A stretch of DNA of 64,000 nucleotides. Origin: Escherichia coli. Its GTDB lineage: Bacteria > Pseudomonadota > Gammaproteobacteria > Enterobacterales > Enterobacteriaceae. Below, one piece after another: positions 1 through 61,991 of this stretch. A program made the translations under genes and the position numbers. The DNA is taken from NCBI RefSeq assembly GCF_044324875.1, contig NZ_CP172185.1. One strand, written 5' to 3'. The notes beneath the pieces were generated by a model. The model was not told the origin of the DNA. It ran no database searches and saw only the letters and a list, made by a program, of their open reading frames with translations. Within the stretch, counting starts at the first letter, position 1. Every line of letters begins with the position of its first letter.

Positions 1-6469
<6,469 letters not shown>

Positions 6470-8119
6470 GTGAACTGGCGCAGAATCGTCTGGCTATTGG
6501 CGTTGGTTACTCTGCCAACGCTTGCGGAGGAGACGCCGTTACAACTGGTGCTGCGCGGTGCGCAGCACGATCAACTGTATCAGCTGTCGTCATCAGGCGT
6601 GACCAAAGTCTCAGCATTACCTGACACTCTCACCACGCCGTTAGGGAGTTTGTGGAAACTGTATGTTTACGCCTGGCTGGAGGATACCCATCAACCGGAG
6701 CAGCCCTACCAGTGTCGTGGAAACTCCCCGGAAGAGGTTTATTGTTGTCAGGCTGGGGAGAGCATAACGCGCGATACCGCGCTGGTACGTTCCTGTGGGC
6801 TCTATTTTGCGCCGCAGCGGTTGCATATTAGCGCAGATGTGTGGGGGCAATACTGGCAACAGCGTCAGGCACCTGCGTGGTTAGCGTCTCTTACTACGCT
6901 GAAGCCAGAAACCTCGGTAACGGTTAAATCACTGCTTGATTCATTAGCGACGTTACCCGCGCAAAACAAAGCTCAGGAAGTCTTACTGGATGTGGTGCTG
7001 GACGAGGCGAAAATCGGTGTCGCATCCATGCTCGGTAGTCGGGTACGGGTGAAAACCTGGAGCTGGTTTGCCGATGATAAACAGGAAATCCGTCAGGGTG
7101 GTTTTGCCGGCTGGTTAACCGATGGTTCACCGCTGTGGGTTACTGGCAGTGGCACCAGCAAAACGGTACTAACCCGTTATGCGACGGTGCTTAATCGGGT
7201 TTTGCCAGTGCCGACGCAGGTTGCCAGTGGGCAATGTGTAGAGGTGGAGCTGTTTGCCCGCTATCCGCTGAAGAAAATCACAGCGGAAAAGAGTACGACG
7301 GCAGTAAAACCCGGCGTACTTAATGGGCGCTATCGTGTGACATTTGCCAATGGTAACCACATTACGTTTGTCAGCCACGGTGAGACGACCTTACTGAGCG
7401 AAAAGGGCAAACTGAAATTGCAGTCGCATCTTGATCGTGAAGAGTACGTTGCCAGAGTTCTGGATCGCGAGGCGAAAAGTACGCCCCCTGAGGCAGCGAA
7501 AGCCATGACCGTGGCGATTCGCACTTTTTTACAGCAAAACGCCAATCGGGAAGGCGATTGCCTGACCATCCCCGACAGTAGCGCCACGCAGCGTGTTTCT
7601 GCTTCGCCAGCGACCACGGGGGCGCGAACGATGACCGCCTGGACGCAGGATCTTATCTATGCGGGCGATCCGGTTCATTATCATGGCAGTCGCGCTACCG
7701 AAGGGACGCTTTCCTGGCGGCAAGCCACGGCCCAGGCGGGGCAGGGAGAGCGTTACGATCAGATACTCGCATTTGCTTATCCCGACAATAGCCTTAGCCG
7801 CTGGGGAGCGCCGCGCTCAACCTGCCAGTTATTACCCAAAGCGAAAGCCTGGCTGGCGAAAAAAATGCCGCAGTGGCGGCGTATATTACAAGGCGAGACG
7901 GGGTACAACGAACCAGACGTGTTTGCGGTCTGTCGTTTAGTCTCAGGTTTCCCCTATACCGATCGGCAGCAGAAACGGCTGTTTATTCGTAACTTCTTTA
8001 CGCTTCAGGATCGGCTGGATTTAACCCATGAGTATCTGCACCTGGCCTTTGATGGTTATCCCACCGGGCTTGATGAGAACTATATCGAAACGCTGACCCG
8101 ACAATTATTAATGGACTAA
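6470..8119 (+). CDS. yfaQ: YfaQ-like exported protein (DUF2300 family)
   Basis: 549-aa ORF with GTG start immediately after the yfaS stop (TAAGTG); N-terminal signal peptide MNWRRIVWLLALVTLPTLAEE. Confidence 0.85.
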   Translation: MNWRRIVWLLALVTLPTLAEETPLQLVLRGAQHDQLYQLSSSGVTKVSALPDTLTTPLGSLWKLYVYAWLEDTHQPEQPYQCRGNSPEEVYCCQAGESITRDTALVRSCGLYFAPQRLHISADVWGQYWQQRQAPAWLASLTTLKPETSVTVKSLLDSLATLPAQNKAQEVLLDVVLDEAKIGVASMLGSRVRVKTWSWFADDKQEIRQGGFAGWLTDGSPLWVTGSGTSKTVLTRYATVLNRVLPVPTQVASGQCVEVELFARYPLKKITAEKSTTAVKPGVLNGRYRVTFANGNHITFVSHGETTLLSEKGKLKLQSHLDREEYVARVLDREAKSTPPEAAKAMTVAIRTFLQQNANREGDCLTIPDSSATQRVSASPATTGARTMTAWTQDLIYAGDPVHYHGSRATEGTLSWRQATAQAGQGERYDQILAFAYPDNSLSRWGAPRSTCQLLPKAKAWLAKKMPQWRRILQGETGYNEPDVFAVCRLVSGFPYTDRQQKRLFIRNFFTLQDRLDLTHEYLHLAFDGYPTGLDENYIETLTRQLLMD

Positions 8120-10188: not shown

Positions 10189-11511
10189 TCAGAACAGCGT
10201 TAAACCAATGACGAAAATGACGCCGGAGAAGAGCAGGGCAGTGATGCAATAGCCCATGATGTCGCGGACACCGAGTCCGGCGATTGCCAGTGCTGGCAGC
10301 GCCCAGAATGGTTGTGCCATGTTCATCCATTGCTCGCCGTAGGCGATCGCCATTACCGATTTACCGAGATCAGCGCCCAGCGCCTGGGCTGCGGGTATCA
10401 CGAAAGGTCCCTGAATAACCCAGTGACCGCCGCCAGACGGAACGGCGAAGTTAATCAGTGCAGAACTAAAAAAGGTCATTACCGGGAAGGTGTCTTTGTT
10501 CGCAACATTGATGAAGAATTCGGTAATGAGTCCGCCCAGACCGGAATGCTCCATCATCAGTTGGATCCCAGCGTAGAAGGGGAATTGCACCAGAATACCG
10601 GCAGTACTGCGTGCTGCCGCGCTGATAGCACGCATATAAGCCATTGGCGTTTTATGTAGCAGCAGACCCGCAATCATAAACATCAGGTTGACGGTATTGA
10701 TGGTGATGTTGAAGCCATGTTCGCTGAAGTACATCGCAAGGTAAGCGATACCGAGTGCGCCGATGATCAACGTCAGAATGCGGCTTTCTTCCAGTCGCTC
10801 GGATGGTGGGGCATCTTTCGGTAGCTGCTTTTGGAAATCAGCCTCTTCCATGAGTAGTTTCGGATCGATACTCACCACGTCAGACGGTTTTGGCATCATC
10901 ATGCGGGTGATAAATGGCATCACCACAATCAACGCCACAGTGATGAAAATGTTAAAACCACTGAACAGAGTATCGCCCACCGGGATCAGCCCGGCGATAT
11001 GCTCAACCGGGTTGCCCGGTGTTGCAGCCAACAGAGGCATTGAGCCAGAGAAACCGCCACCCCAGGTGAGAAAACCAATGTAGGCGCAGGCAATGAGCAA
11101 CGGATAATCAGAACCGGGTACTCGGCGGGCGACTTCACGGGCAAACATTGCGCCGACAACCAAACCAAATCCCCAGTTGATGACACAAGCGACTGAACCG
11201 AAGAAAGTAACCAGCATGACGCCCTGTACGGGCGTCTTTGCGGCGGAGGCGGCAGTACGCAGCAAACTTTTTACCGGAGCAGAGCTGGCAAGGGCATGAC
11301 CGGTAACGATGATAAGTGCCATCTGCATACCAAACGCCAGCAAGTTCCAGAAACCGTCACCCCACATTTTCACCATGCTGATCGGCGTTTGTGGTGTTAA
11401 CCAAAGCGCGATCACGAAAGTTAGCAATGTCAGCAACATGGCAAAGATCAGTGGATCGGGAAGCCACCGGCTGACAAAACGCGTCATAAAACGCGATATG
11501 CGACCAATCAT
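10189..11511 (-). CDS. atoE: Short-chain fatty acid transporter
   Basis: 440 aa polytopic membrane protein between atoA and atoB. Confidence 0.9.
   Translation of the reverse strand: MIGRISRFMTRFVSRWLPDPLIFAMLLTLLTFVIALWLTPQTPISMVKMWGDGFWNLLAFGMQMALIIVTGHALASSAPVKSLLRTAASAAKTPVQGVMLVTFFGSVACVINWGFGLVVGAMFAREVARRVPGSDYPLLIACAYIGFLTWGGGFSGSMPLLAATPGNPVEHIAGLIPVGDTLFSGFNIFITVALIVVMPFITRMMMPKPSDVVSIDPKLLMEEADFQKQLPKDAPPSERLEESRILTLIIGALGIAYLAMYFSEHGFNITINTVNLMFMIAGLLLHKTPMAYMRAISAAARSTAGILVQFPFYAGIQLMMEHSGLGGLITEFFINVANKDTFPVMTFFSSALINFAVPSGGGHWVIQGPFVIPAAQALGADLGKSVMAIAYGEQWMNMAQPFWALPALAIAGLGVRDIMGYCITALLFSGVIFVIGLTLF

Positions 11512-19228: not shown

Positions 19229-19240
<12 letters not shown>
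16391..19240 (+). CDS. rcsC: Hybrid sensor kinase RcsC
   Basis: 949 aa; H-box VSHELRTPL, ATP-binding G-boxes, C-terminal receiver (ILVVDDHPINRRL…D). Confidence 0.95.
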
Positions 19241-19434
<194 letters not shown>

Positions 19435-23090: not shown

Positions 23091-23183
23091 AAAAAAAACC
23101 GGATGCGAGGCATCCGGTTGAAATAGGGGTAAACAGACATTCAGAAATGAATGACGGTAATAAATAAAGTTAATGATGATAGC
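23091..23183 (-). ncRNA. micF: MicF antisense sRNA
   Basis: Reverse complement reads GCTATCATCATTAACTTTATTTATTACCGTCATTCATTTCTGAATGTCTGTTTACCCCTATTTCAACCGGATGCCTCGCATCCGGTTTTTTTT, ending in a hairpin plus T-run; divergent from ompC. Confidence 0.9.
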
Positions 23184-23338
23184 GGGAGTTATTCTAGTTG
23201 CGAGTGAAGGTTTTGTTTTGACATTCAGTGCTGTCAAATACTTAAGAATAAGTTATTGATTTTAACCTTGAATTATTATTGCTTGATGTTAGGTGCTTAT
23301 TTCGCCATTCCGCAATAATCTTAAAAAGTTCCCTTCTA

Positions 23339-23502: not shown

Positions 23503-24645
<1,143 letters not shown>

Positions 24646-26950: not shown

Positions 26951-27600
26951 TGTTGGATCTGTTTGCCGATGCTGAACCGTGGCAAGAGCCACTGGCGGCT
27001 GGTGCGGTAATTTTACGGCGTTTTGCTTTTAACGCTGCGGAGCAACTGATCCGCGATATTAATGACGTTGCCAGCCAGTCGCCGTTTCGCCAGATGGTCA
27101 CCCCCGGCGGATATACCATGTCGGTGGCGATGACCAACAGTGGGCATCTGGGCTGGACGACCCATCGGCAAGGTTATCTCTATTCGCCCATTGATCCGCA
27201 AACAAATAAACCGTGGCCCGCCATGCCACAAAGCTTTCATGATTTATGTCAACGTGCGGCTACGGCGGCGGGCTATCCAGATTTCCAGCCAGATGCTTGT
27301 CTTATCAACCGCTACGCTCCTGGCGCGAAACTGTCGCTGCATCAGGATAAAGACGAACCGGATCTGCGCGCGCCGATTGTTTCTGTTTCTCTGGGCTTAC
27401 CCGCAATTTTTCAATTTGGCGGCCTGAAACGAAATGATCCGCTAAAACGTTTGTTGTTGGAACATGGCGATGTGGTGGTATGGGGCGGTGAATCGCGGCT
27501 GTTTTATCATGGCATTCAACCGTTGAAAGCGGGGTTTCATCCACTCACCACCGACTGCCGCTACAACCTGACATTCCGTCAGGCAGGTAAAAAAGAATAA
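26950..27600 (+). CDS. alkB: Alpha-ketoglutarate/Fe(II)-dependent DNA/RNA demethylase AlkB
   Basis: 216 aa; HxD motif (LHQDKDEPD); TAATG overlap with ada stop. Confidence 0.95.
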   Translation: MLDLFADAEPWQEPLAAGAVILRRFAFNAAEQLIRDINDVASQSPFRQMVTPGGYTMSVAMTNSGHLGWTTHRQGYLYSPIDPQTNKPWPAMPQSFHDLCQRAATAAGYPDFQPDACLINRYAPGAKLSLHQDKDEPDLRAPIVSVSLGLPAIFQFGGLKRNDPLKRLLLEHGDVVVWGGESRLFYHGIQPLKAGFHPLTTDCRYNLTFRQAGKKE

Positions 27601-27675
27601 AAATAAGAATTATTATTGCTGTGCGCGCGAAGATGTTTAAACTGCGGGCTGTAATTCATTGTCCGGGTTTTCTGC

Positions 27676-29319
27676 ATGGAACTTCTTGTACTTGTCTGGC
27701 GGCAGTATCGCTGGCCATTTATCAGTGTGATGGCGCTAAGCCTCGCCAGTGCGGCTTTAGGCATTGGCTTAATTGCTTTTATCAATCAGCGCCTTATCGA
27801 AACGGCGGATACCAGTCTGCTGGTGTTGCCGGAGTTTCTGGGATTATTGCTGCTGTTGATGGCAGTCACTCTCGGATCGCAACTGGCGCTCACCACTTTG
27901 GGGCATCACTTCGTTTACCGACTGCGTAGTGAATTTATCAAGCGGATTCTCGATACTCACGTCGAGCGCATTGAACAACTCGGTAGCGCCTCGTTGCTGG
28001 CGGGATTAACCAGCGATGTGCGCAATATCACCATTGCTTTTGTGCGTCTGCCGGAACTGGTGCAGGGGATCATCCTCACTATCGGTTCCGCGGCGTACTT
28101 GTGGATGCTGTCGGGCAAAATGTTGCTGGTAACGGCTATCTGGATGGCAGTCACCATCTGGGGCGGTTTTATACTGGTGGCGCGGGTGTACAAACATATG
28201 GCGACCCTGCGTGAAACCGAAGATAAGCTGTACACGGATTTTCAAACCGTACTCGAAGGGCGCAAAGAGCTGACTCTGAACCGTGAACGCGCCGAGTATG
28301 TGTTTAACAACCTCTACATTCCTGATGCGCAAGAGTATCGCCATCATATTATCCGCGCAGACACCTTCCATCTTAGTGCCGTGAACTGGTCAAACATCAT
28401 GATGCTGGGCGCAATCGGCCTGGTGTTCTGGATGGCGAACAGTCTCGGTTGGGCTGATACCAACGTTGCCGCGACCTATTCGTTGACGCTGTTATTCCTG
28501 CGTACGCCGCTGCTTTCGGCGGTTGGCGCATTACCGACGCTGCTGACGGCGCAGGTGGCGTTTAACAAGCTGAACAAATTCGCGCTCGCACCTTTCAAAG
28601 CAGAGTTTCCACGCCCGCAGGCGTTTCCCAACTGGCAAACGCTGGAGCTGCGTAACGTGACGTTTGCTTATCAGGATAATGCGTTTTCCGTTGGGCCGAT
28701 TAACCTCACCATTAAACGTGGCGAGCTGCTGTTTCTGATTGGTGGCAACGGTAGTGGAAAATCGACGCTGGCGATGTTGCTGACGGGCTTGTATCAGCCA
28801 CAAAGCGGCGAAATCTTGCTGGATGGCAAACCTGTCAGCGGCGAACAACCGGAAGATTATCGCAAACTGTTTTCGGCAGTGTTTACCGATGTCTGGCTGT
28901 TCGATCAACTGCTGGGGCCGGAGGGTCAACCCGCTAACCCGCAACTGATTGAGAAGTGGCTGGCGCAACTGAAAATGGCTCATAAGCTTGAGTTAAGTAA
29001 CGGGCGTATTGTTAACCTGAAGTTATCGAAAGGGCAGAAAAAACGCGTGGCGCTGTTGCTGGCGCTGGCAGAAGAACGCGATATTATCCTGCTGGATGAA
29101 TGGGCGGCGGATCAGGACCCACACTTCCGTCGTGAGTTTTATCAGGTGCTGCTGCCGCTGATGCAGGAGATGGGTAAAACGATTTTCGCCATCAGTCATG
29201 ATGATCATTACTTTATCCACGCTGACCGCCTGCTGGAAATGCGCAACGGGCTACTTAGCGAGCTGACAGGCGAAGAGCGCGATGCTGCTTCGCGTGATGC
29301 CGTTGCCCGGACGGCATAA
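27676..29319 (+). CDS. yojI: ABC transporter, fused permease/ATPase (microcin J25 efflux, YojI)
   Basis: 547 aa; N-terminal transmembrane domain, Walker [10 protein letters not shown], signature LSKGQKKR, Walker B ILLLDE. Confidence 0.9.
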
Positions 29320-29524
29320 TATTTCGACGCTGACCTGGCGGACTGCTGCTGCCAGGTCAATATTCTAAAAATCCCTTCGTTTCTAATAACCCTATAATTA
29401 ATCAACGAAATTATAATGTTTCTAAAAATAGAATATAATTTATAAACATTATTTAAATGTTGTTACTTAAGTGTTACCGTTGATGCCGCGCAAATCTCAC
29501 CTGCAATAAAGCGACTAAAAGTAA

Positions 29525-31183
<1,659 letters not shown>

Positions 31184-31185
31184 TG

Positions 31186-31312
31186 ATGTGCCACATCCGG
31201 CATGGTATGCCGGATGTGGCGTATGCAGATAAGACGCGTCAGCGTCGCATCAGGCAACCGGCTCGGGCGTTAGATGTCGGATGCGGCGTGACCGCCTTAT
31301 CTGACCTACGGG
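31186..31312. repeat. Terminator-like palindrome plus REP element downstream of mqo
   Basis: Palindrome gccacatccggcatggtatgccggatgtggc followed by a REP-like unit (…gccttatctgacctacg). Confidence 0.7.
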
Positions 31313-31332
31313 GTGCCGCACTTCACGGCAGT

Positions 31333-31821
31333 TTAGCGAACTACCGCGTTGTCAATTTTCTCTTCCGCCTTCCAGATGCGGTATTTCACATCCACATTGT
31401 CTGGCGTATACACCACGATAGGCAGCTTGCTGTTGTAACGCAGCATTCCAGCATCGCCCAGATACGCGGTGACAAATTTCTTCTCTTTCTTGCCATCCGG
31501 GCAGGCCATCATCGTCGAAACCGGGGAACTGACTTTATCAAAGACATAATAATCATAGCCCCAGCCTTCCAGCGTTTTGCTTTCCAGCTTCCCGCCGAGA
31601 CGATGCAAATTGCAATCGACTTCCAGCGTCTGACCGATTAACAGTTCTACTTTCAGGGTAGATTCATCTTCTTGCGGGGTTAACTGAATCACCTGACGCT
31701 TCATGCCTTTTTCAGCTTGCGGATAAGGAGCGATTTTTTCCAGTGGCTGGACGCTCTCTGCCGCCCAGGCGGAGGTGGTGGCGAAAGCGGCAAACAATAC
31801 TGCAGGTAGAATGGTCTTCAT
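31333..31821 (-). CDS. eco: Ecotin, periplasmic serine protease inhibitor
   Basis: 162 aa; signal peptide [20 protein letters not shown]; ecotin fold. Confidence 0.95.
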
Positions 31822-56459: not shown

Positions 56460-58049
56460 TCAGCTCAACGCCAGTAGCTGACGCGTATACTCCTGCTGCG
56501 GTGCGGCAAACACGCGCGCGCACGGTCCTTGTTCCACTACTTCCCCTTGTCGCAGTACGATAACCTGATGACATAACGCGCGGACAACGTGCAAATCGTG
56601 ACTGATAAACAAATAGGCCAATTGATGCTTCTGTTGCAATGATTTCAATAGCGTCAATATTTGCGCCTGTACCGTTTTGTCGAGCGATGATGTTGGTTCA
56701 TCAAGAATGATCAGCGAGGGCTTAAGAATTAACGCCCTGGCAATCGCAATACGTTGCCGCTGACCACCAGAGAACTCCGCCGGATAACGGTGGCGTGTTT
56801 CAGGATCTAATCCCACTTCATGCATCACGGCTATCACTTGTTGTTCGCGTTGTGCGGCAGAAAGCGTCGGCTGGTGAACCCGTAAGCCTTCCTCAATAAT
56901 TTGCAAAACGTTGAGTCGTGGGTTGAGCGAGGAGTTTGGATCCTGAAATACCACCTGAATGCGATGACGAATAGGTAACAGCTGGCGACGATTTAAATTT
57001 TGCAGTGGCTGACCGTCAAAGATAATGCTGCCCTGAGAGTTAATCAGTCGCAGCAGCGCCAGTCCCGTCGTGCTTTTCCCGGAACCGGACTCGCCCACTA
57101 AACCCAGTGTTTCACCCGCTCGTAGCGTAAAACTGATGTTTTTCACCACCACATTATGATCCACAATGCGCTTCAAAATCCCTTTGCGAATGGGGAAGGC
57201 AACCTGAAGCTGTTCAACATTCAGCAACGTTGAGGCAGGTTCTGGCAATGGCACCGGGTCGCCTGACGGTTCACTGTTGAGTAGCTTTTGTGTGTAAGGA
57301 TGAGTGGGTGAGGCAAATAGCGTAGCGGCGTTATTTTGCTCGACACAGCGACCGTTTTGCATTACCGCCACGCGGTGGGCCAGTTTTCTGACAATGCTGA
57401 GGTTATGAGTAATAAACAGCATGCCCATATTCAGCTCGCCTTGCAGTTCGCGCAACAGCTGTAAAATCTGCGCCTGGACAGAGACGTCCAGTGCGGTGGT
57501 TGGTTCATCGGCAATTAATAATTCCGGTCGCGTTAACAGCGCCATCGCAATCATCACCCGCTGGCGTTCGCCGCCGGAGAGCTGATGCGGATAATCTGTC
57601 AGCCGTTTTGCCGCCTGGCGGATACCGACGCGATCAAGGCAGTTAAGAATTTCGCCACGAGCCGCTTCCCGACGCATCCCGCGGTGGAGTGAAAGCACTT
57701 CATAAAGCTGTTTTTCCAGGGTATGCAATGGATTTAATGACACCATCGGCTCCTGAAAAATCATGGCGATCTTATTACCGCGTACACCGCGCAACGTTTG
57801 ATCGCTGGCATGAAGCAGCGATTCGCCATGAAAACGAATATCGCCGGAGAGATATTCAACCGGCGGGGAAGGGAGCAGGCGTAAAATTGACAGCGCGGTA
57901 ACGCTTTTGCCTGAACCTGACTCACCCACCAGCGCCAGCGTTTCGCCAGCCTCAATCTGAAGTGAAACATCATTGACTACTGTACGTACGGTTTGCTGAT
58001 GGCGAAAACCCACCGACAAATTTTCAATCGCTAACAGAGTTTGCGTCAT
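56460..58049 (-). CDS. yejF: ABC transporter ATPase with duplicated ATP-binding domains, YejF
   Basis: Start at [15 protein letters not shown] (529 aa); two Walker A motifs (GESGSGKS x2) and two signature motifs (LSGGERQR / FSGGQRQR). Confidence 0.93.
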
Positions 58050-58050
58050 G

Positions 58051-59076
58051 CTACACCGCCTTATTAGGATCAAATGCGTCGCGGACGGCTTCACCAATAA
58101 AGATCAGCAAAGACAACAATATCGCCACCGACAAGAAGGCGGTGATCCCAAGCCACGGGGCCTGAAGGTTATTTTTCCCTTGTAACAGCAGTTCGCCGAG
58201 TGACGGTGAACCGAGCGGCAGACCGAAGCCGAGGAAATCGAGTGAGGTCAGGGTGGTGATCGAACTACATAAAATAAACGGTAAAAAGGTGAGGGTAGCG
58301 ACCATGGCATTTGGCAACATATGACGCAGGATGATACTGCGATCGCTGACGCCAAGCGCCTGCGCCGCGCGGATGTAGTCGAAATTACGGGTACGTAAAA
58401 ACTCCGCCCGCACCACGCCGACCAGACTCATCCAGCCAAACAAGACGGTAATTGCCAGCAGCCACCAGAAGTTAGGCTGTACGACGCTGGAAAGTAAAAT
58501 AATCAAAAACAGCGTCGGCATCCCCGACCATACTTCAATAAAACGTTGCCCCCAGAGATCGACTTTACCGCCGTAATAGCCTTGTAGCGCCCCCGCCAGC
58601 ACGCCCATCACGCTGGAACAGAGAGTCAGCATCAGGCCAAACAGAACCGAGATCCGCGTGCCATAGAGAATACGTGCCAGCACATCGCCGCCGTTGGCAT
58701 CCGTTCCCAGCCAGTTTTGCCGGGAGGGTGGGGAGGGGAAGGGCTTGTCGGTAGCAAAGTTGATACTGGTAGCACCAAAGCGAATCGGTGCCCACAGTAC
58801 CCAGCCGTTATGTTCCAGCCGTTGTTTCAGCCACGGGTCCTGATAATCAGCCTGACTTGCCAGCGGACCGCCAAAATCGCTTTCGCTGTAGTTTTTCAAC
58901 AACGGGAAATACCAACTGCCGTCATAACGCACCAGCAACGGTTTATCGTTGGCGATAAGTTCAGAACACAAACTCAAACCAAACAAGACGAGGAAAATCC
59001 ATAACGACCAGTAGCCGCGACGGTTATGACGAAAACGCGCCCAACGGGCCTGATTGACGGGGCTGAGTCGCGACAT
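58051..59076 (-). CDS. yejE: ABC transporter permease YejE
   Basis: 341 aa; Opp/Dpp-type permease. Confidence 0.92.
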   Translation of the reverse strand: MSRLSPVNQARWARFRHNRRGYWSLWIFLVLFGLSLCSELIANDKPLLVRYDGSWYFPLLKNYSESDFGGPLASQADYQDPWLKQRLEHNGWVLWAPIRFGATSINFATDKPFPSPPSRQNWLGTDANGGDVLARILYGTRISVLFGLMLTLCSSVMGVLAGALQGYYGGKVDLWGQRFIEVWSGMPTLFLIILLSSVVQPNFWWLLAITVLFGWMSLVGVVRAEFLRTRNFDYIRAAQALGVSDRSIILRHMLPNAMVATLTFLPFILCSSITTLTSLDFLGFGLPLGSPSLGELLLQGKNNLQAPWLGITAFLSVAILLSLLIFIGEAVRDAFDPNKAV

Positions 59077-60170
59077 TAACGTCCCTCAAAATCTATACGC
59101 GGATCGACCAGCGTATAGCTGATATCACTGACAATATTCAGCAGCAGGCCAATCAGGGTGAAAATATACAAAGTACCAAACATTACAGGATAATCGCGCG
59201 AGACGGTCGCTTCGTAGCCCAGTAAGCCAAGACCATTGAGCGAAAACATTACTTCAATCAGCAGCGAGCCGGTAAAAAACATGCTGATAAACGTCGCCGG
59301 AAAACCGGCAATCACCAGCAGCATGGCGTTGCGGAACACATGTTTCCAGAGAATATTTTTTTCACTTACCCCTTTCGCACGGGCGGTCACCACGTATTGC
59401 TTGCGCACTTCATCAAGGAATGAGTTTTTTGTCAGCATGGTCAGCGCCGCAAAGCCGCCAATCACTGTCGCCAGCACCGGCAGCGTGATATGCCACAGAT
59501 AATCGGTGATTTTCTGATACCACGGCAGCGAATCAAAGTTAGCGGAAACCAGGCCGCGTAGAGGGAACAGGTCGAAATAGCTGCCGCCCGCGAAGAAGAC
59601 AATCAGCAGGATGGCAAACAAAAAGGCCGGAATGGCGTAGCCGATGATGATAAATGCGCTACTCCAGACGTCAAAGCGGCTCCCATTATAAACAGCTTTG
59701 CGAATGCCTAACGGAATCGACACCAGATAGATAATCAGCGTGCTCCACAATCCGAGGGTGATGGAAACCGGCAGACTGTCTTTAATCAGCGTCAGCACCG
59801 AGGCGCTGCGAAACAGGCTATCGCCAAAATCAAAGCGGATGTAGTCCCAGAGCATTTTGAAGTAACGTTCGTGGATCGGCTTATCGAAACCGTAGCGATG
59901 AGTGATCTCGGCGATCACTTCTGGATCTAATCCGCGTCCGCCACGGTAATTACTGTCGCTGATATTGCCGACGCCCGTTTGCGCATGGCTGGCGCGAACA
60001 CCTTCACCGCCTGCGCCGGGTAATACTCCGGCATTACCAAACTCAATGGCGGCGATGGCCTGGTCGACCGGACCGCCAGGCGCAATTTGCACGATGAAAA
60101 AGTTGATAGTGATAATCGCCCATAACGTTGGGATCACCAGCAACAGACGGCGAATCAGATAAGCGCCCAT
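59076..60170 (-). CDS. yejB: ABC transporter permease YejB
   Basis: 364 aa; Opp/Dpp-type permease; 1-nt overlap with yejE. Confidence 0.92.
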
Positions 60171-61991
60171 CTACTCTCCCTGTTGTCTGGCTGACGGCAG
60201 TTTGGCCGCTTTATTAACGTCATACCACCAGGTATCGATACCCAGGCTGTAAACAGGGCGCACTGCGGGTTGAGAGAATTTATCCCACCAGGCGAGACGG
60301 TCTTCCGCCATATACCACATTGGCAGCATGTAATAATTCCACGTTAATACGCGATCCAGTGCTCGCCCCAACGGCAGTAATTTTTCTTTATTTCCCTGCG
60401 CGGCAATAATTTGGTTGATCAGCGAGTCGATAACCGGGCTTTGCACGCCGGGGGCATTATAAGTGGAATTGATATATTCCGATGACCAGGAAATCTGTAA
60501 ATCGGAACTGGGCCACGGCATCGCCCGCCATACGCGCGGCATCATGTCATAGTCGCGACTGCGCATGCGGTTGGTGATTTGCGAGTTATCCACTTTGCGA
60601 ATGTCCATGTTGATACCCAGCCGTTGCAGGCTGTGCTGGAACGGCAATACCCACTGACTATTGCTGCTCGAAGGTAGCAATAACTCAAAGCTGAGCGGCT
60701 GACCCGTTGTGGCATCTACGCGTTGCTGACCCTTCAGCACCCAGCCCGCTTCGTTGAGAAGTTTGTCGGCTTTTAACAGGTTGTCACGATCGTAGCCATC
60801 GCCTTTGGATACCGGCGGCTGGTAGATTTGCGTGAAGACTTCTGGCGGTAGATCTTTTTTCATTGGTGCCAGAAGCACCAGCTCCGCGGCGTCGGGGTAA
60901 TTTCTGGCCGCGTATTCGGTATTCTGAAAATAACTGTTCGTGCGACTCCAGGCATTGTAAAACAACGCTTTGTTCATCCATTCAAAGTCAAAGGCGAGAG
61001 TGATCGCTTCCCGCACCCGGCGATCGCTGAATACCGGACGTTGGATATTAAACGCCAGCCAGCGCGTATCCTGGGCTGATTCGTTCTTTTGCTCATCTTT
61101 GATGATGTATTTCTTATCGAAATTTTTACCGGTATAGCGCGTGGCCCAGTTTTTGGCGTCGTTTTCCATACGCAAATCAAAGGCACCGGCTTTAAACGCT
61201 TCAAAGGCGACATTATCATCGAGGTAATAATCGTAGCGAATGGTGTCGAAATTCCAGCGTCCACGGTTTACCGGTAAGTTTGCTGCCCAGTAATCTTTCA
61301 CGCGGGAATAGACAATATTTTGCCCCATTTTCCAGGACGTAATTCGGTACGGACCACTGGCAAGCGGAGGCGTGGCGAGCGGGTCGCTAAGTTTGTGATT
61401 CTTCCAGTACTTTTCTGGAAATACCGGCAGCGAAAACAGACTCAGCATATCTTCTTTGCCGGGTTTAGCTAACTCAATACGCACGGTTAATGGTGCAATG
61501 GCTTTGACGGTGGTGCCTTTGTAGACCAGACGAAATTGCGGCACGCCTTCGGTCATAAATTTTTGAAAAGTAAACTCTACATCGCGGGCAGTAATGGGCG
61601 AACCATCATGAAAACGGGCGCGCGGATTAATAGCGACCTCCACCCAGGAATAATCGTCAGCATAGCGTGCGCTTTCGGCAATCAGCGGGTAATAACTGCC
61701 TGGTTCGTCATCGGAAGTTGTAAATAGCGTGTCGTACAGCTGCTCGGTGCGTGCGCCCGGGTTGCCGCGCAGTGCATAGCGGTTGAAATTATCGAAGGTG
61801 CCGAGGGCTGACAACGTTATCTGCCCCCCTTTTGGCGCGGCGGGGTTCACATAATCAAAATGGTTGAAATTAAACGCGTACCGGGGTTCGCCCAGCACGG
61901 CAAAGGCATAGCTTTCCTTGATAGCCTGCGCCTGCGCACCAAAGGTGAACAGAGCGATAAACAGCAGCAGTATGCGCACAATCATCTGCAA
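60171..61991 (-). CDS. yejA: Periplasmic substrate-binding protein YejA (peptide/microcin C uptake)
   Basis: Signal peptide (…[16 protein letters not shown]); family-5 SBP; start may be 2 codons downstream of 61991. Confidence 0.9.

Follow-up and report, generated by a model that had tools for sequence, protein, structure and literature searches.

The window, meaning the entire 64,000-nucleotide stretch of DNA that was analyzed, is ordinary E. coli core chromosome in reversed orientation relative to K-12. It opens within yfaA, which is cut by the window start, and continues through yfaT, an alpha-2-macroglobulin gene, yfaQ, yfaP, atoBEAD and atoCS, followed by rcsC, rcsB, rcsD, micF, ompC, apbE, ada, alkB, yojI, mqo, eco and yojO. 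Beyond these genes lie napFDAGHBC, ccmA-H, narP, yejO, proL, yejM (lapC), yejL and yejK, and the order then closes with rplY, radD, rsuA, bcr, yejG, yejFEBA and pdeN. Direct blastn alignment found positions 24279-64000 to be collinear with K-12 from ompC to mepS, the differences consisting of an IS5 element in K-12 yejO and two short intergenic stretches present only in K-12. Other strains cover positions 1-7000 and 6852-48055 in full, and blastn against K-12 and two other strains found no insertion specific to the window.

Within this region, yojI is a single open reading frame on the plus strand at positions 27676-29319, running from an ATG at 27676 to a TAA at 29319 and encoding 547 amino acids. 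An open frame of 547 codons in DNA of about 52% GC has a probability of about (61/64)^547, or roughly 4e-12 per start, which makes a chance occurrence extremely improbable. When the annotation of strain XJ6.1 was mapped onto the window, its yojI fell on exactly 27676-29319, base for base. A megablast search of 5,426 complete E. coli genomes matched the interval 27000-30000 once each in 5421 of them, and the genes annotated beneath the match are alkB, yojI (as "microcin J25 efflux ABC transporter YojI") and mqo. An antisense open reading frame of 150 aa at 28531-28983 on the minus strand, along with other overlapping frames, was rejected as a gene because these frames lie wholly inside a conserved coding frame under purifying selection and nothing supports them.

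The original prediction, given for 27676-29319, named two microcin-related ABC transporters of the window, yojI and yejABEF. The first lies exactly at those coordinates, whereas the second is found 27 kb away at 56460-61985 on the minus strand, between yejG and pdeN. The operon starts with yejA (60171-61985), encoding a periplasmic substrate-binding protein of 604 aa with a 19-residue signal peptide, and proceeds through yejB (59076-60170) and yejE (58051-59076), encoding membrane permease subunits of 364 and 341 aa, to yejF (56460-58049), encoding an ATPase subunit of 529 aa with two fused nucleotide-binding domains. The genes follow the order A-B-E-F on the minus strand with spacings of 0, -1 and +1 nt, the yejE start overlapping the yejB stop by 1 nt, and this tight packing fits a single operon. 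The yej operon was present in 5422 of the 5426 complete genomes by megablast. The flagged reading frame is almost certainly the chromosomal core gene yojI, and yejABEF, 27 kb downstream, the usual yej operon of E. coli.

Comparison with K-12 supports the earlier statement that both loci are intact. All five genes have the K-12 lengths and the K-12 start and stop codons, contain no internal stops and share 97.3-98.5% nucleotide identity with their K-12 counterparts, the lowest value being that of yojI (1644 nt in both strains, against b2211). At the protein level, YojI is identical to K-12 YojI (NP_416715.1) at 542 of 547 residues and carries five conservative changes (I159V, V166I, K418Q, V425I and Q526L; dN/dS 0.043), all outside the ATPase motifs. 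YejF carries four changes (dN/dS 0.053), YejE two (0.030), YejB none (0) and YejA nine (0.071). The range of dN/dS from 0 to 0.071 indicates strong purifying selection on yojI and the yej genes. The surroundings are also those of K-12, with ada-alkB upstream and mqo downstream of yojI. The yej operon shares gene order, lengths, tight packing and the pdeN and yejG flanks with b2177-b2180, from which it differs by allelic substitutions only.

We also considered that the yojI and yej genes might be present here in a non-functional or silent form through missense or regulatory mutations. The YejA allele is the one feature that could suggest such a state, as it is rare, occurring on 2 contigs in public data, and its nine substitutions include one in the signal peptide (V17A) and two at the C-terminus (S600R and K601Q). 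One of these two contigs measures 5.75 Mb and also bears the YojI allele of the window. Against this, every change falls outside the catalytic motifs, the genes hold neither frameshifts nor stops under the low dN/dS values given above, and the alkB-yojI spacer is identical to that of K-12 over the 120 nt aligned. The remaining alleles are widespread: the exact YojI protein occurs on 228 contigs in public collections, where it and the yej proteins already bear these names, those of YejF and YejE each occur on at least 1000 contigs, and YejB equals the UniProt K-12 entry. Loss of function or silencing is therefore highly improbable, and we treat both loci as intact. Since over 99.9% of complete E. 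coli genomes have both loci, intactness is the default state of the species and says nothing specific about this strain. The description of the two transporters as context and not a new system likewise holds, given core genes in K-12 order that nearly all complete genomes share.

The ATPase half of YojI has a clear match to Pfam ABC_tran, and its motifs are intact, with a Walker A at residues 356-363 (GGNGSGKS), a signature at 450-454 (LSKGQ), a Walker B at 470-475 (IILLDE) and an H-loop at 506-509 (ISHD). Hydropathy analysis resolved six hydrophobic segments between residues 18 and 290, arranged in three pairs, and none past residue 320. The arrangement is that of an ABC half-transporter in which a membrane domain is fused to an ATPase domain, and which should function as a dimer. 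The Pfam ABC_membrane model (PF00664) scored 26.1 bits, under its 28-bit cut-off, and aligned to residues 45-198 alone. The membrane domain is divergent, and its fold class rests on hydropathy and the literature, where PMC13316013 classes YojI as type IV. The protein matches the NCBIfam equivalog NF007813 at 1049.3 bits (cut-off 604) over residues 1-546 of 547. It also aligns at full length to the MsbA and CydC models, with scores below their cut-offs.

At the subfamily level, YojI scored 366.8 bits over residues 2-526 against TIGR01194 ("cyclic peptide export ABC transporter"; cut-off 286.2). Many members of this family, such as exporters of the SyrD and PvdE types, sit inside non-ribosomal peptide or siderophore clusters. 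In contrast, yojI has DNA-repair genes on one side and mqo on the other, and its surroundings contain no biosynthetic genes. No solved YojI structure was found in the PDB, and the whole-protein matches there were generic ABCB-type exporters aligned via the ATPase domain. When residues 1-320 were compared with all PDB chains by phmmer, the best E-value was 0.12 and four matches reached E <= 10. McjD (4PL0), the plasmid-borne exporter and immunity protein for microcin J25 (MccJ25), was absent from those four and from the best 60 whole-protein matches. Both McjD and YojI are described as ABC half-transporters that expel MccJ25 and require TolC (PMC8277102), whereas yojI belongs to the chromosomal core and has no mcjABC genes as neighbors. 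YojI thus resembles McjD in reported function without being a close sequence relative.

The functional assignment of YojI comes from the literature on orthologues, with which the original prediction of MccJ25 export by YojI and microcin C import by YejABEF agrees. From Delgado 2005, cited through PMC10926693, PMC7285073 and PMC8277102, YojI is described as a pump that extrudes MccJ25 and depends on TolC, and both Lrp and ppGpp reportedly raise its expression (PMC7285073; PMC10926693; PMC8277102). Deletion of tolC raised MccJ25 sensitivity more than 4000-fold (bioRxiv preprint 10.1101/2025.03.19.644130). A true tripartite YojI-TolC pump has been questioned in PMC8277102, where it is written "YojI?-TolC", and no adaptor protein is known. 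The most probable mechanism, as judged from orthologues, is that two copies of YojI would form a homodimeric exporter in the inner membrane, whose two ATPase domains would bind and hydrolyze ATP and so toggle the membrane domains from inward- to outward-facing and back. The lasso peptide MccJ25 would thereby be expelled from the cytoplasm, with the outer-membrane duct TolC needed for its exit from the cell, and its intracellular level would be kept under that which blocks RNA polymerase.

The MccJ25 role of YojI rests largely on reports from one laboratory, and it is possible, if on balance rather unlikely, that the physiological task of YojI is not microcin defence. MccJ25 would then be an incidental substrate, the compound truly carried would be a different one, peptide-like or endogenous, and the microcin label would be a convenience of annotation. 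This reading draws on the breadth of the TIGR01194 family, whose cut-off YojI passes and which extends beyond microcin pumps, and on the rarity of MccJ25 producers in a species whose core genome includes yojI. It is also in line with a 2026 article that lists YojI as of "unknown function" apart from one microcin J25 report (PMC13316013), with the altered E. coli metabolism and worm reproduction that follow yojI deletion (PMC13289084), and with the position of yojI next to ada-alkB in three genera behind a conserved 75-nt spacer. However, the genetic work of Delgado 2005, as cited in PMC7285073, ties changes in yojI dosage, and its deletion, directly to how resistant or sensitive cells are to MccJ25. 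YojI variants have been seen again in naturally MccJ25-resistant isolates (I91V, R313C and A430V; PMC10926693), a yojI knockout had no effect when YojI was tested as a porphyrin exporter (PMC11943725), and no alternative YojI substrate is known. None of the three variants of the resistant isolates is present in the window allele. We therefore retain MccJ25 export as the working function of YojI.

The subunits of the yej operon were identified individually. YejA begins with a hydrophobic N-terminus (residues 1-19), matches Pfam SBP_bac_5 at 7e-66 and aligns end to end over residues 20-604 with the solved E. coli YejA structures 8fsr, 7z6f and 7atr; among the NCBIfam models, none reached its cut-off for this protein. 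The solved Sinorhizobium meliloti YejA structure 7z8e also matches the window YejA at 8.6e-117, and the S. meliloti protein has 38% identity to E. coli YejA (PMC10924461). YejB and YejE both match Pfam BPD_transp_1 and, at full length, their NCBIfam models (NF011712 with 793.3 bits against a cut-off of 445, and NF011596 with 779.2 bits against 439). Their EAA-type loops lie around residue 262 in YejB and at residues 237-255 in YejE (AAQALGVSDRSIILRHMLP). YejF matches the NCBIfam equivalog NF011713 at 1101.6 bits (cut-off 834) over residues 1-529 of 529 and Pfam ABC_tran twice. The ATPase motifs of YejF are intact in both halves, with Walker A at 42-49 and 319-326, the signature at 157-161 and 426-430, Walker B at 177-182 and 446-451, and the H-loop at 213-216 and 482-485, and its four substitutions relative to K-12 all fall outside them.

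In its layout of one binding protein, two permeases and two ATPase domains, YejABEF corresponds to the Opp and Dpp importers, with which it shares the Pfam families SBP_bac_5, BPD_transp_1, ABC_tran and oligo_HPY. YejF also scores strongly on the OppD, OppF and DppF models, staying below the cut-off for most of them. It differs from Opp and Dpp in that both ATPase domains are fused in one polypeptide, YejF, and in that YejA has an extension of 35 residues at its N-terminus and a more spacious binding cavity (PMC10924461). Salmonella, Brucella and Sinorhizobium possess orthologous operons, for which the phenotypes described are resistance and virulence roles in those genera.

YejABEF is described as the inner-membrane importer of microcin C (PMC10924461), and loss of any yej gene is reported to confer resistance to microcin C (Novikova et al., as cited in PMC10924461). 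Competition experiments pointed to substrates about 7-13 residues long (PMC10924461). In the proposed mechanism, periplasmic YejA would capture peptides of about 7-13 residues and longer ones, among them the peptide-nucleotide microcin C, and would dock onto the channel formed by YejB and YejE, with the double ATPase YejF powering import. Within the cell, peptidases would then free the toxic aspartyl-adenylate analogue.

A different emphasis is that YejABEF serves mainly in resistance to host antimicrobial peptides, in peptide nutrition or in envelope-stress sensing, so that microcin C uptake would be a hijacking of the importer and a vulnerability. Mutants in yej of Salmonella and Brucella show higher sensitivity to defensins, polymyxin B and similar agents together with lower virulence (PMC10924461, PMC4994006), and in S. 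meliloti the importer deals with NCR peptides and with phazolicin (PMC8406287, PMC10128002). YejA binds a peptide of its own N-terminal extension, suggesting a sensing role (PMC10924461, PMC4994006), and this self-peptide, described in PMC10924461 and containing EPRYAFN, is conserved at residues 31-41 of the window YejA. However, antimicrobial-peptide binding to E. coli YejA has not been demonstrated: in thermal-shift assays with the purified protein it was undetected, and the N-terminal peptide was bound instead (PMC10924461). This reading is moreover compatible with the original prediction, which had YejABEF importing "microcin C and peptides", and the two differ in emphasis. We hold a primary role outside microcin uptake to be tentative and less than an even prospect, and import of microcin C along with other peptides is the reading kept here.

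The suggestion that the window bears on microcin self-protection was overstated. The core peptide of MccJ25 (McjA) and the MccA heptapeptide were absent from all six frames of the window, and the window contained neither a microcin production or immunity cluster nor a strain-specific insertion, nor any DNA beyond that of genomes from non-producers. Since genes for making a microcin are absent from the window, neither YojI nor YejABEF constitutes producer immunity. YojI would here represent the intrinsic resistance of a non-producer, producer immunity being the task of plasmid-borne McjD, and YejABEF would be a liability toward microcin C and not a protection. We infer that the net effect is a lowering of MccJ25 susceptibility by YojI and the creation of microcin C susceptibility by YejABEF. 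The strain should accordingly behave as a usual E. coli, tolerating MccJ25 at a basal level through YojI and TolC and being sensitive, through YejABEF, to microcin C and to related peptide antibiotics of the Trojan-horse kind. Both yojI and yejABEF are well known, and the significance of the observation extends little beyond correct annotation.

The DNA flanking yojI was compared across genera. The order ompC-apbE-ada-alkB-yojI is common to the K-12, XJ6.1, Citrobacter and Salmonella loci, and the gene downstream of yojI varies, being mqo in E. coli, eco in Salmonella and, in Citrobacter, mgtE together with a gene of the sulfate-transporter family. This variation by genus leaves ada-alkB-yojI as the conserved unit. 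Between alkB and yojI, at positions 27601-27675 (plus strand), lies a spacer whose length of 75 nt is the same in E. coli, Citrobacter and Salmonella and whose sequence is conserved among them, with a mean column identity of 92%. E. coli is 81-87% identical to Salmonella and Citrobacter across the spacer, compared with 54-56% identity at third codon positions of yojI and 47-51% at those of alkB. The spacer holds an invariant A/T-rich run of 32 nt and an invariant TTAAACTGCGGGCTGT. Such conservation points to regulatory DNA, presumed to be that of yojI, and fits the published control by Lrp and ppGpp.

Individual elements within the spacer were less distinct. A scan of 27300-29700 called neither a plus-strand promoter ahead of yojI nor a terminator separating it from alkB, and the overall counts of promoters and terminators in that interval stood at the level of shuffled sequence. 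By eye, a candidate -35 (TTGCTG, 27616-27621) and a candidate -10 (TAAACT, 27638-27643) can be read, for which the scan made no call. The Lrp consensus YAGHAWATTWTDCTR had no match in 27601-27675; across the window it had 10 matches against 8.35 expected, which is chance level, the consensus being too degenerate to inform. Immediately ahead of the yojI start, at 27639-27670, a hairpin whose stems are invariant across the three genera folds at -9 to -12.9 kcal/mol (z -1.1 to -1.95) with zero compensatory pairs. No RNA element is claimed at this position, as the hairpin is no stabler than shuffled sequence and covariation is absent.

The conserved ada-alkB-yojI unit, the fixed 75-nt spacer and the lack of a canonical terminator after alkB make partial read-through into yojI, or control from the spacer, conceivable. 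A more specific proposal can be built on this, in which YojI does not serve microcin defence, its expression is tied to the upstream neighbors by read-through from the Ada operon or by a spacer element, and it exports another compound. We consider this combination very unlikely; if true, such a non-microcin reading of YojI would hold for all E. coli and not for this window specifically. Finally, on the far side of yojI, a stem-loop (GACCUGGCGG...CUGCCAGGUC) occupies positions 29331-29359 on the plus strand, 12 nt past the stop codon. A canonical U-run does not follow it and the terminator scan made no call. The surrounding segment (29310-29380) folds at -21.1 kcal/mol with a z-score of -3.15, a stability equaled in 1 of 200 shuffles, and the stem-loop possibly marks the end of the yojI transcript.

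The 75-nt intergenic spacer between alkB and yojI, the gene of an ABC half-transporter reported to export microcin J25, is likely to be conserved regulatory DNA, as judged from a comparison of the locus in three genera. The spacer (27601-27675) has exactly the same length in E. coli, Citrobacter and Salmonella, with the counterparts located at 3926-4000 in both L004 and L006, the compared loci from the other genera. Identity between genera is 81-87% in the spacer versus approximately 55% at the silent codon positions of yojI. The spacer also contains an A/T-rich run of 32 nt that is invariant in the three genera, as well as a hairpin (27639-27670) whose stems are invariant and whose loop is variable across the same genera, and which is without statistical support. 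Downstream of yojI, a stable stem-loop (29331-29359, plus strand; -21 kcal/mol, z -3.15) starts 12 nt past the stop codon. No U-run follows this stem-loop, and the 150 nt separating it from mqo are very A/T-rich.

The small RNA MicF, a repressor of OmpF, is encoded at 23091-23184 on the minus strand (Rfam RF00033, 116.8 bits), divergent from ompC. Because the OmpF repressed by MicF is described in reviews as the outer-membrane entry route for microcin C and microcin B17 (PMC7680869), the MicF locus also bears on microcin susceptibility. This locus was absent from the original prediction, which addressed yojI and the importer operon yejABEF. The neighboring ompC (23518-24645, plus strand) encodes 375 aa in the window versus 364 aa in E. 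coli strain XJ6.1, and the two thus differ in length, in a variable porin.

The highest identity to the window shown by any of 5,426 complete RefSeq E. coli genomes was only 98.8-99.3% over three sampled stretches, and the source lineage is therefore without a close representative among those genomes. The exact YojI and YejA alleles of the window were found together on one public contig of 5,752,694 bp.

Alignment to XJ6.1 stops within a few bases of the 3' end of the tRNA-Pro(GGG) gene proL (48061-48137, minus strand), at position 48055, and XJ6.1 carries PerC-family and ProQ/FinO-family genes at this break. XJ6.1 seems to harbor an island integrated at proL, with the same site empty in the window. 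Between rcsC and rcsB, at 19240-19430, the naRNA4/REP-type element (Rfam RF02564) is present in two tandem copies (64.3 and 84.3 bits), and a further break in the XJ6.1 alignment within them (19319/19344) suggests that the copy number of this element differs between the window and XJ6.1. Relative to the window, K-12 has approximately 460 bp extra in the eco-mqo interval (31183-31336), also missing from XJ6.1, and approximately 150 bp extra in the narP-ccmH interval (44366-44401).

The autotransporter gene yejO (45368-47959, plus strand) is an intact ORF of 863 codons, whereas its K-12 counterpart is a pseudogene split by IS5. The atoE ORF (10189-11511, minus strand) is intact but is annotated as frameshifted in XJ6.1. 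An alpha-2-macroglobulin family gene at the yfaS position (1955-6469, plus strand) is also an intact ORF; yfaS is presumably a pseudogene in K-12. Finally, a ribosomal protein L25 leader (51853-51878, minus strand; Rfam RF03131, 46.9 bits) was identified in its expected place upstream of rplY.
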